From the NCBI RefSeq assembly GCF_013167455.1, contig NZ_CP038328.1: DNA of 64,000 bases; one strand, given 5' to 3'. Source of the stretch: Escherichia coli O157:H7. Lineage in GTDB: Bacteria; Pseudomonadota; Gammaproteobacteria; Enterobacterales; Enterobacteriaceae. Shown in pieces: positions 47,108 to 59,108 of this stretch. The notes beneath the pieces are model-generated. The model worked only from the letters and a program-made list of their open reading frames with translations, did not search any database and was not told the DNA's origin. The position numbers were made by a program, and so were the translations under genes. Within the stretch, counting starts at the first letter, position 1. The number at the start of each line of letters is the position of its first letter.

Positions 47108-47534
47108 ACCGGACTCCTCCTGCGATCCCTTCTGATACTGTCATCAGCATTACGTCATCCTCCGTCATGTCCGCCACATCCGGGGAAGCGGGGATAACTT
47201 CATTCCCGTCCGGGCCAAAACGAACGCCTCCAGCAAGCCCTGCCGCTTTCTGCATCAGCACATCATCTTCAGGCTCTTCGTCAGCCTCACGCCGGTTCAG
47301 CAGACTGAAATCCAGCGGATGCATATCCGGATCGCTGAAAAACAGGCTGAGCACGGTGTACGTCAGCCCGGAAAAGTGCATATCCAGCAGAACATCATGA
47401 AAATAATGGGTACTGTAAAAGCGGTGCCAGTCGGCATACTCCGTGGATGACATCCCGGCAAGCATGGCACGCCAGTCGGGTCGCCCCATCTCGCGCGCCA
47501 GTTTCAGGGCAAAACTCAGCTCACCGTCGAACAC
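47100..47534 (-). CDS. T: T reading frame of tail assembly chaperone, expressed as a G-T fusion by -1 frameshift
   Basis: ORF-track frame (V)FDGELSFALKLAREMGRPDWRAMLAGMSSTEYADWHRFY...; entered from G via the slippery site. Confidence 0.85.
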   Translation of the reverse strand: MFDGELSFALKLAREMGRPDWRAMLAGMSSTEYADWHRFYSTHYFHDVLLDMHFSGLTYTVLSLFFSDPDMHPLDFSLLNRREADEEPEDDVLMQKAAGLAGGVRFGPDGNEVIPASPDVADMTEDDVMLMTVSEGIAGGVRYG

Positions 47535-47938
47535 TTTCCCGCAGAAACAGGCTCTGCAGGCCCGGCGTCCTCTGCCTGTTCAGGGGCATCATTCACCACA
47601 AACTCATACATACCGGACAGCCGGTACACCACGTTTTCAGCATGAGAAATTGCCTCCGCGGGCCAGGTGGTAAGCACTTCCTGCTCAATCTGTTTAACGG
47701 CTTCATTCATGGACGGCATCTGCGTCTTCTTCGGATGGTTATGCCACAGGGACATCGCCACCACAAAAGCGCCGGTTCTGATGGCGTCTTCCACAGTAAA
47801 CTTCCGGTTGCTGTCTGACTCCGCCTGTTCTGCCTGCCGTTTCATCAGGGCGAGATGCTCAATACGCTGCAGGGCTGACAGTTCAGAAAGCGTGACGGTC
47901 ACGCCGTTATGTTCAAATGATTCGGTTTTCAGGAACAT
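47516..47938 (-). CDS. G: Tail assembly chaperone G
   Basis: 140 aa MFLKTESFEHNGVTVTLSELSALQRIEHLALMKRQ... Confidence 0.93.
   Translation of the reverse strand: MFLKTESFEHNGVTVTLSELSALQRIEHLALMKRQAEQAESDSNRKFTVEDAIRTGAFVVAMSLWHNHPKKTQMPSMNEAVKQIEQEVLTTWPAEAISHAENVVYRLSGMYEFVVNDAPEQAEDAGPAEPVSAGKCSTVS
47534..47540 (-). other. Programmed -1 ribosomal frameshift slippery heptamer G-GGA-AAG for G-T fusion
   Basis: Minus strand reads GCG GGA AAG TGT in the G frame; the -1 frame continues as the T ORF. Confidence 0.8.
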
Positions 47939-47953
47939 CGCTGATTCTCCGGA

Positions 47954-48724
47954 TTAACTGGCGGTGACGTTGATTTCTGCAACCGCAGCAAACTCACCAT
48001 TACCGGATACGACCGGAATGTTGACCTTGCCTGCAGCAACACCTTTCACGGTGATGGTCATACCACTGACCGACACGGTGGCTTTTGTTTTATCCGCAGA
48101 CACCGCACGGAAGCTCTTGTCGGTTGCGCCTTCCGGCTGGAATGCCACGGTCAGCGTCGTGCTCTGCCCTTTCACCACCGAGGTGCTGGCAGGCGTCACG
48201 GTCATGCCGGTTGCCGCTGTTACCGTGCTGCGATCTTCTGCCATCGACGGACGTCCCACGTTGGTGACTTTCACCGTGCGGGTGATCACTTCCTTCGCCG
48301 TCACCGCCTTACCGATACTGCTGACCCAGCCGCGGAACACATCGACCGTGCCGTTCGGGAAGCGGATTTTATAGGCACGGGTATCACCTTCATTAAACCA
48401 CGCCAGCAGCGCCTGCTGCCCCTGCTCTCCGGGCATCCACGCCAGCGTGAAGCTGGTATCTCCAGCGGATTTCTGCCCCTGTCCGGTCGCGGCCCAGTCC
48501 GCATCTTCATCATCGAGATAACTGTCGTCATAGGACTCAGCGGTCAGTTCGCCGGGCGTCAGGTCTTTAACCTTTGCCAGACGCGACCAGTCATTGTCTG
48601 AAAGCGGGTTTGCATATGGGTCGCCGTTCCCGTTATAAACCCACAGTGTGGTCCCGGCCCCTTTCACCGGTGCCAGAGGATTTGGTGTTGGCATATCGTC
48701 CTCACATTTCATAGGTAATGACAT
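47954..48724 (-). CDS. V: Major tail protein V (with C-terminal Ig-like domain)
   Basis: 256 aa [32 protein letters not shown]... Confidence 0.93.
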
Positions 48725-53231: not shown

Positions 53232-56912
<3,681 letters not shown>

Positions 56913-56938
<26 letters not shown>

Positions 56939-57458
56939 TCAGCAACCCCGGTATCAGTTCATCCAGCGCGGCTGCTTTGTTCATGGCTTTGATGATATCC
57001 CGTTTCAGGAAATCAACATGTCGGTTTTCCAGTTCCGGAAAACGCCGCTGCACCGACAGGGGGATCCCGTCGAGAATACTGGCAATTTCACCTGCGATCC
57101 GCGACAGCACGAAAGTACAGAATGCGGTTTCCACCACTTCAGCTGAGTCTCTGGCATTCTTCAGTTCCTGTGCGTCGGCCTGCGCACGCGTAAGTCGATG
57201 GCGTTCGTACTCAATAGTCCCTGGCTGGAGATCTGTCTCGCTGTCCTGCCTCAGTTCTTCAACTTCCCGGCGCAGCTTTTCGTTCTCAATTTCAGCATCC
57301 CTTTCGGCATACCATTTTATGGCGGCGGCAGAGTCATAAAGTACCTCATTACCCTTGCCACCACCCCGCAGAACGGGCATTCCCTGCTCCTGCCAGTTCT
57401 GAATGGTACGGATACTCGCGCCGAAAATGTCAGCCAGCTGCTTTTTGTTGACTTCCAT
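56913..57458 (-). CDS. Nu1: Terminase small subunit Nu1
   Basis: 181 aa MEVNKKQLADIFGASIRTIQNWQEQGMPVLRGGGKGNEVLYDSAAAIKWY... Confidence 0.95.
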
Positions 57459-57635
57459 TGTTCATTCCACGGACAAAAACAGAGAAAGGAAACGACAGAG
57501 GCCAAAAAGCCCGTTTTCAGCACCTGTCGTTTCCTTTCTTTTCAGGGGGTGTTTTAAATAAAAACATTAGGTTACGGCGAAGAAGAACGGAAACGCCTTA
57601 AACCGGAAAATTTTCATAAATAGTGAAAAACCGCG

Positions 57636-57647
57636 AGGTCGCCGCCC
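57636..57647 (-). other. cosN: lambda 12-nt cohesive-end sequence (cosB lies between here and Nu1, cosQ on the other side)
   Basis: Plus-strand AGGTCGCCGCCC is the reverse complement of 5'-GGGCGGCGACCT-3'; surrounding sequence matches lambda cos as recalled. Confidence 0.85.
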
Positions 57648-57846
57648 CGTAACCTGTCGGATCGCCGGAAAGGACCCGCAAAATGATAATAATTATCATC
57701 TACATGTCACAACGTGCATCTACGCCATCAAACCACGTCAAATAATCAATTATGACGCAGGTATCGTATTAATTGATCCGCATCAACTTAACGTAAAAAC
57801 AACTTCAGACAATACAAATCAGCGACACTGAATACGGGGCAACCTC

Positions 57847-58041
57847 ATGTCAACGAAGAACAGAACCCGCAGAACAACAACCCGCAACATCCGCTTTCCT
57901 AACCAAATGATTGAACAAATTAACATCGCTCTTGATCAAAAAGGGTCCGGAAATTTCTCAGCCTGGGTCATTGAAGCCTGCCGTCGGAGGCTAACGTCAG
58001 AAAAGAGAGCATATACATCAATTAAAAGTGATGAAGAATGA
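57847..58041 (+). CDS. Small conserved protein at the phage right end (YlcI/DUF3950-like)
   Basis: 64 aa MSTKNRTRRTTTRNIRFPNQMIEQINIALDQKGSGNFSAWVIEACRRRL...; same position as the unnamed ORF near the lambda right end. Confidence 0.6.
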   Translation: MSTKNRTRRTTTRNIRFPNQMIEQINIALDQKGSGNFSAWVIEACRRRLTSEKRAYTSIKSDEE

Positions 58042-58205: not shown

Positions 58206-58412
58206 TCAGTCAACCACCAGGGAATAATCCTTCATATTATTATCGTGCTTCACCAACGCTGCCTCAATTGCCCTGAATGCTTCCAGAGACACCTTATGTT
58301 CTATACATGCAATTACAACATCAGGGTAACTCATAGAAATGGTGCTATTAAGCATATTTTTTACACGAATCAGATCCACGGAGGGATCATCAGCAGATTG
58401 TTCTTTATTCAT
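58206..58412 (-). CDS. Hypothetical prophage protein (YbcW-like)
   Basis: 68-aa ORF in the bor-proximal region; family assignment from memory only. Confidence 0.45.
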
Positions 58413-58697: not shown

Positions 58698-59108
58698 ATG
58701 GCTCAGGTTGCCATTTTTAAAGAAATATTCGATCAAGTGCGAAAAGATTTAAACTGTGAATTGTTTTATTCTGAACTAAAACGTCACAATGTCTCACATT
58801 ATATTTACTATCTAGCCACAGATAATATTCACATTGTGTTAGAAAACGATAACACTGTGTTAATAAAAGGACTTAAAAAGGTTGTGAATGTTAAATTCTC
58901 AAGAAATACGCATCTTATAGAAACGTCCTATGATAGGTTGAAATCAAGAGAAATCACATTTCAGCAATACAGGGAAAATCTTGCTAAAGCAGGAGTTTTC
59001 CGATGGGTTACAAATATCCACGAACATAAAAGATATTACTATGCCTTTGATAATTCATTACTATTTACTGAGAGCATTCAGAACACTACACAAATCTTTC
59101 CACGCTAA
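58698..59108 (+). CDS. DUF1398-family prophage protein (YbcV-like)
   Basis: ORF-track protein contains [30 protein letters not shown]...; start set at the internal ATG with GGAAGG upstream. Confidence 0.6.

Follow-up and report, generated by a model that had tools for sequence, protein, structure and literature searches.

Identification of a lambda-like cos site

Does a lambda cohesive-end sequence in the chromosome of Escherichia coli O157:H7 belong to a complete cos, and if it does, of which packaging specificity? We addressed this question in a stretch of 64,000 nucleotides (referred to here as the window), in which the 12-mer GGGCGGCGACCT, identical to lambda bp 1–12, occurs as a single exact copy, on the minus strand at positions 57636–57647. 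The 12-nt lambda cohesive end that had originally been predicted on this strand is thus present. An exact 12-mer is expected by chance about 0.008 times in 2 × 64 kb; when one mismatch is allowed, 29 of 100 shuffles gave a match, so that the 12-mer alone is not significant. A chance origin is ruled out by the 600-bp colinear alignment in which the 12-mer is embedded. The minus strand of 57348–57950 is colinear with lambda 48200–48502 joined to 1–300, with 579 of 604 columns identical and one 1-bp indel. The original prediction required the likeness to lambda to extend outside the 12-mer, and it does so at 96% over 600 bp. In megablast, the cos region matches lambda, DE3 and many lambdoid phages with E = 0, at 95–98% over the full 700 bp, and the DE3 match carries an annotated cos site. 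An Rfam scan gave no match at cos.

The packaging-termination signal cosQ is found as the heptamer GGGTCCT on the minus strand at 57671–57677, with 0/7 differences from lambda 48473–48479, which we take to be the cosQ coordinates of Wieczorek & Feiss 2001. The cosQ element is 7 bp long and strongly conserved (PMC4669245). It is followed by a spacer (57653–57670) of 18 bp, a length equal to that in lambda, with one difference in the 18 positions. The spacer leads to cosN, a site of about 22 bp (PMC4856287). In the window, the 22-bp nicking site TTACGGGGCGGCGACCTCGCGG (57631–57652) has 0/22 differences from lambda, two-fold symmetry at 10 of its 22 positions, and CG at both nick sites. By analogy with lambda, the nicks are predicted to fall at 57648/57647 on the minus strand and at 57635/57636 on the plus strand.

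In the description of the Feiss laboratory, I2 occupies bp 18–50, cosB comprises about 120 bp with the order R3-I1-R2-R1, and the functional fragment is lambda 48446–182 (PMC4856287, PMC4669245). Their counterparts in the window all lie on the minus strand. Between cosN and cosB, the AT-rich and bent I2 segment (57598–57630) has 2/33 differences and unchanged length. The small-subunit binding site nearest cosN, R3 (57582–57597), has 0/16 differences, including at bp 56, 58 and 59. The other two terminase-binding sites of cosB, R2 (57524–57539; inverted relative to R3 and R1) and R1 (57483–57498), also have 0/16 differences each. A repeat search independently recovers the R3/R1 direct repeat, at 101-bp spacing, and the inverted R2. 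The claim that the cohesive end is surrounded by cosB- and cosQ-like sequence is therefore well founded, in that cosQ, cosN and all three R sites are those of lambda.

Between R3 and R2, the IHF-binding and bend segment I1 (57540–57581) carries 5 substitutions in 42 positions and no indel. Both of its IHF-consensus matches are kept: AATAAAAACATTA with one mismatch, and AAACATTAGGTTA with two mismatches and its change within the NNNN part. As the stretch from cosN to R2 is free of indels, the cosN–R3 spacing is preserved. Overall, lambda and the window share sub-site order, orientation and spacing, and their 25 differences in 604 columns all lie outside the protein-binding cores, those in I2 and the I1 region among them. 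Also among the 25 are another allele of the Fur box upstream of cosQ (see below) and, in the window, a 1-bp deletion between R2 and R1. This deletion is common to every sampled natural variant except lambda, which is the outlier. The cos of the Stx1a-converting phage (O157 Sp15 type) is identical to the window over lambda bp 25–200, that is, in all cosB-side variants including all five in the I1 region, whereas near cosN it has G15A in place of the window's G18T and G24A, and upstream of the Fur box it is unrelated.

The palindrome adjoining cosQ

A perfect 17-bp palindrome, ATGATAATAATTATCAT, had been placed at 57681–57698, likened to lambda, and offered among the evidence for lambda-type packaging specificity. 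The sequence is indeed present, but at 57683–57699. Its two 8-nt arms are perfect and enclose one base (ATGATAAT-A-ATTATCAT); this central base is unpaired, and the reverse complement differs there. As the palindrome is a 17-mer, full self-complementarity is impossible. The likeness to lambda is approximate only, since lambda TGATAATCATTATCA is built as 7+1+7 and departs from the window in the central base and, in one arm, in the outermost base. As evidence for cos, the palindrome has to be set aside, being a predicted Fur-binding site that adjoins cos. It is not a known cos sub-site either, as published descriptions list only cosQ, cosN, I2 and cosB (PMC4669245, PMC4856287).

By consensus match, spacing and allele, the palindrome is the same Fur box that has been reported for K-12 ahead of nohA and nohB. 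It is the best match to the 19-bp Fur consensus GATAATGATAATCATTATC in the 64-kb window, with 16/19 and 15/19 positions in overlapping registers (extended matches, 57679–57703), so that the E. coli Fur box and the palindrome are alike at 15–16 of 19 consensus positions. In the Qin prophage, a gel-shift-positive Fur site that had earlier been selected in vivo (FURTA) lies 233 bp upstream of nohA, and in DLP12 a Fur cluster of 25.3 bits is predicted at nohB (Chen et al. 2007). In the window, 233 bp likewise separate the palindrome centre (57691) from the Nu1 ATG (57458) downstream of it. In an alignment, the window carries the DLP12 allele base for base, and lambda carries the Qin allele.

Binding of Fur to this type of sequence has been observed in vivo. 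A nine-strain Fur ChIP-exo study reports, for CFT073, an iron-replete peak (P53) in the nohD intergenic region, and this peak falls exactly on the sequence homologous to the palindrome, just 5′ of cosQ. Fur binding is thus documented for homologous alleles only, that of Qin in vitro and by FURTA and that of CFT073 in vivo. In Fur ChIP-exo of strain Sakai, no peak is reported at the cos of the corresponding prophage, Sp8, which is uninformative because the region is a repeat of 6–9 copies that confounds read mapping. The ChIP-exo study does report a peak specific to iron starvation, which lies upstream of ECs1621–1624, the lysis genes of Sp8 (Sakai NC_002695.1, 1625832–1625844); this peak is on the Q/holin side of Sp8, not at cos. 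The accessible portion of the mBio 2015 Fur ChIP paper makes no mention of noh-region genes.

No derepression of nohD was seen in K-12 fur deletion strains, where log2(fur deletion/wild type), at read counts below 4, was −0.14 for MG1655 and −2.76 for W3110. RNA from ylcI, ybcW and ynfO was also lower in the fur deletion, a pattern unlike that of simple repression. A sigma-70-like promoter match (GTGACA, 16-nt spacer, TATCAT; 57683–57710, minus strand), a consensus match only with 10/12 positions, overlaps the Fur box and points toward cos and nu1. Reading the palindrome as a promoter is weakly supported, because other lineages do not keep the −35 element and many of them have TATCGT for TATCAT.

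Three small genes are located between cos and bor, at 57847–58041 (plus strand), 58206–58412 (minus strand) and 58698–59108 (plus strand). They encode a ylcI-like DUF3950 protein, ybcW (no Pfam match) and a ybcV-like DUF1398 protein, and their order is that of K-12 DLP12. Their K-12 homologues had lower RNA in the W3110 fur deletion, at very low read counts.

Conservation of the Fur-box core beside cosQ

To survey other lambda-like cos sites, viral contigs were scanned with a cosQ–cosN pattern that excluded the palindrome, which gave 120 loci. In about 105 of them, the Fur core GATAAYNATTATC (at most 2 mismatches) is found 4–9 bp upstream of cosQ, and the loci with the core span at least five types of small-terminase N-terminus. 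The phi80 16-mer is identical to that of the window, and N15, lambda and the CFT073 prophage also carry the core. The core is not obligatory, since 13 loci in about six contexts have cosQ–cosN without it. In 61 distinct haplotypes, mean information is 1.73 bits per position in the core, compared with 0.44 at positions 11–30 further upstream, a contrast that is inflated by the selection of haplotypes at 2 or fewer mismatches.

One reading, which we put forward tentatively and regard as unlikely though by no means negligible, is that the Fur box serves lambda-like cos sites as a conserved accessory element, irrespective of their type of cosB and small terminase, and that host Fur, and with it iron status, would modulate something at cos. 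Candidate targets are cosQ termination, terminase access, and transcription entering nu1. No paper in the searched literature, with the cosQ-mapping papers outside its reach, contains both "cosQ" and "Fur", and Chen et al. 2007 do not mention lambda, prophage or cos. The link between Fur and cosQ thus appears to be undrawn in the packaging or Fur literature searched, and it is a lead rather than a result.

The same conservation could have another cause. The palindrome could belong to cos as a part so far unrecognised, with a role in packaging termination beside cosQ, its likeness to a Fur box and the binding of Fur being incidental. The nearly fixed distance between core and cosQ across several terminase types, and the drop in conservation beyond the core, would fit such a role, and the standard functional cos fragment, lambda 48446–182, happens to include the palindrome. 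However, the published cosQ is 7 bp with no upstream element listed (PMC4669245, PMC4856287), cosQ–cosN occurs without the core in the 13 loci noted above, the conservation figure is inflated, and binding of Fur to homologous alleles is an experimental result. We consider a packaging role of this kind improbable, and the palindrome is treated in what follows as a Fur box next to cos.

The I2 allele

I2 lies between cosN and R3 and is essential in lambda (PMC4856287). The two substitutions in the window are G18T (57630) and G24A (57624). No full-length match among 50,697 phage records carries this T18/A24 allele, which is limited to at most 592 E. coli chromosome records, and lambda, N15 and phi80 all have G at position 24. 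Together with the lethality of I2 replacement in lambda, which reduces yield to about 1e-5 (PMC4856287), and with the residence of this cos in a defective prophage without selection for lytic growth, such a distribution might be taken to mean that the site is a decaying relic, in which G18T and G24A impair the post-recognition step of I2 and leave an inefficient packaging origin. Nevertheless, only 2 of 33 I2 positions are changed, and G18T lengthens a T-tract, so that the AT-rich character is kept. Position 18 is naturally variable, being A in N15 and phi80. The same T18/A24 allele is also found in the cos of a CFT073 prophage, beside a different cosB and small-terminase type, which points to a circulating allele and not to private decay. 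All other sub-sites and the 20-odd late genes are intact. Decay of the site is thus very improbable in our estimation, although the I2 allele could cause a quantitative packaging defect.

Terminase genes and packaging specificity

Both terminase genes lie directly downstream of cosB on the minus strand. The small subunit is encoded by nu1 (nohD in RefSeq; 56913–57458), whose 181-aa product is 97.8% identical to lambda Nu1 over its full length, with V46A, A72D, A75T and L132I as the differences, and matches Pfam Phage_Nu1 with 332 bits. The large subunit is encoded by A (55013–56938); its 641 aa are 99.2% identical to lambda gpA (5 substitutions) and match Pfam GpA_ATPase and GpA_nuclease. W, B, C/Nu3, D, E, FI, FII, Z, U, V, G, T, H, M, L, K and I are full-length and colinear with lambda. 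The proteins from Nu1 to I are 93.6–100% identical to those of lambda, with matching Pfam domains, and J is 89.9% identical. The slippery heptamer GGGAAAG of the lambda G/T programmed frameshift is kept at the G–T junction (about 47501–47560, minus strand).

In cosQ and cosN, lambda and phage 21 do not differ; they are told apart by R3 bp 56 (T.A versus G.C), 58 and 59 and by small-terminase residues 20 and 24 (PMC4669245). In the window, R3 has T56 (T.A), C58 (C.G) and C59, all as in lambda. The recognition helix of Nu1 has Q20 and E24, and residues 1–45 are identical to lambda. The left ends of N15 and phi80 part from the window sequence beyond about bp 42–50. Packaging specificity of the phage 21, N15 or phi80 type behind a lambda cohesive end, conceivable in that the 12-mer alone cannot separate lambda from phage 21, is refuted at the sequence level by these features of R3 and of the small-terminase recognition helix, as well as by the lambda R2 and R1, and has practically no chance of being correct. 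Lambda packaging specificity is supported, every checkable published determinant being present along with near-identical Nu1 and gpA; on this point the original prediction is upheld, as a statement about sequence.

The host prophage

The window is part of the E. coli O157:H7 chromosome and is 100% identical to many strains. In a sister strain, the prophage extends from icd through int, xis, truncated O, P, ren, emrE, ybcK, nin genes, Q, lysis genes, bor, ybcV, ybcW and ylcI up to cos; beyond cos it runs from Nu1 to J, lom, stf and tfa, and then into a cargo block with a manganese catalase. By its integration at icd and its putative catalase (ECs1652), the prophage corresponds to Sakai prophage Sp8. 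In Sakai, Sp8 is without cI and cro, and has an intact terminase and, like only two other lambdoid prophages of that strain, a full set of morphogenesis genes; circularisation, replication and packaging were all negative with or without mitomycin C (Asadulghani et al. 2009). The Stx1 prophage of Sakai, Sp15, is inducible, packaged and transferred (Asadulghani et al. 2009).

The early region of the icd prophage varies between O157 strains (L004 14258–16678 versus L006 9568–16938). In PV15-279, the same prophage has a larger early-region deletion, with int-xis joined almost directly to ylcG/Q, and the icd prophage of Balcarce_24.2 retains truncated O, P, ren, emrE, ybcK and the nin genes. These differences suggest ongoing deletional decay.

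ISEc8 (IS66 family; 28338–30671) abuts a fragment of a tail-fibre-assembly gene (30744–30896). The cargo block (31031–34410) encodes a methyltransferase, a general stress protein, two ferritin-like proteins and the manganese catalase, and is followed by an intact tfa (34530–35111). The layout of 28338–35111 looks like a moron cassette between duplicated tfa ends. Rfam matches elsewhere in the window comprise two ALIL pseudoknots (IS3-family frameshift elements; 1103–1219, plus strand, and 6654–6770, minus strand), which are inverted and about 5.5 kb apart, the C0299 sRNA (16665–16743, minus strand), and the IS009 RNA family inside tfa (34570–34768, minus strand). Outside the window, about 8 kb beyond icd, a satellite-like element of about 10 kb (L006 25710–36146) is located between phoQ and roxA. 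With genes for an integrase, a RepA-family helicase, major capsid and head decoration proteins and a small terminase, it resembles a capsid-forming phage-inducible island.

The cos region is present in 4561 of 5426 complete E. coli genomes, in up to 13 copies per genome and in 6–9 copies in O157. In K-12, DLP12 (nohD, formerly nohB) and Qin (nohA) have the same cos sequence and the same ylcI/ynfO–cos–noh arrangement as the window. They have lost their large-subunit terminase and structural genes to deletion or pseudogene formation (for example aaaD), whereas the morphogenesis module of the window is intact. Taken together, the results indicate that window positions 57483–57677 (minus strand) are very probably a complete cos of lambda packaging specificity, forming part of the lambda-like late region in a defective O157:H7 prophage of the Sp8 type, integrated at icd.

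Proposed working and likely activity of the site

Following the lambda paradigm, Nu1 dimers would bind R3 and R2 across an IHF-bent I1, and would also bind R1. The large subunit gpA would thereby be positioned to introduce staggered nicks 12 bp apart in cosN, which would give 5′ GGGCGGCGACCT overhangs. Terminase would remain on the cosB end, dock on a prohead, and translocate DNA in the direction from Nu1 to J, that is, toward lower window coordinates. Termination would require cosQ and cosN of the next cos. The site looks competent for these steps in its sequence, and by analogy with lambda it would be cut.

Within its own prophage, cos is probably idle, since the prophage is without cI and cro and is not induced in Sakai, and virion DNA ends from it may never be seen. 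The window extends 57.6 kb downstream of this cos and contains no second one. With only one cos in the window, in situ packaging from an unexcised prophage could not terminate within the capacity of the lambda capsid, for which we use the established limits. A more realistic activity, which we consider plausible, would be in trans, through the near-identical terminases of other lambdoid prophages in the cell, or would follow recombination into those prophages. A co-resident terminase should recognise the window's cos, because its cosB is that of the Stx1a-converting phage and Sp15 is induced and packaged.

Significance

The anatomy and mechanism of cos are already known and are textbook biology, and as a cos site this locus matters little, being one among thousands of near-identical copies in E. 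coli. Because Sp8 combines a complete morphogenesis set with an intact terminase and cos of lambda specificity, it could supply packaging or structural functions to defective Stx-carrying prophages in the same cell, or recombine with them. The only element with some potential for novelty is the Fur box next to cosQ, which, if functional, would add a host iron-sensing input to a much-studied packaging site.
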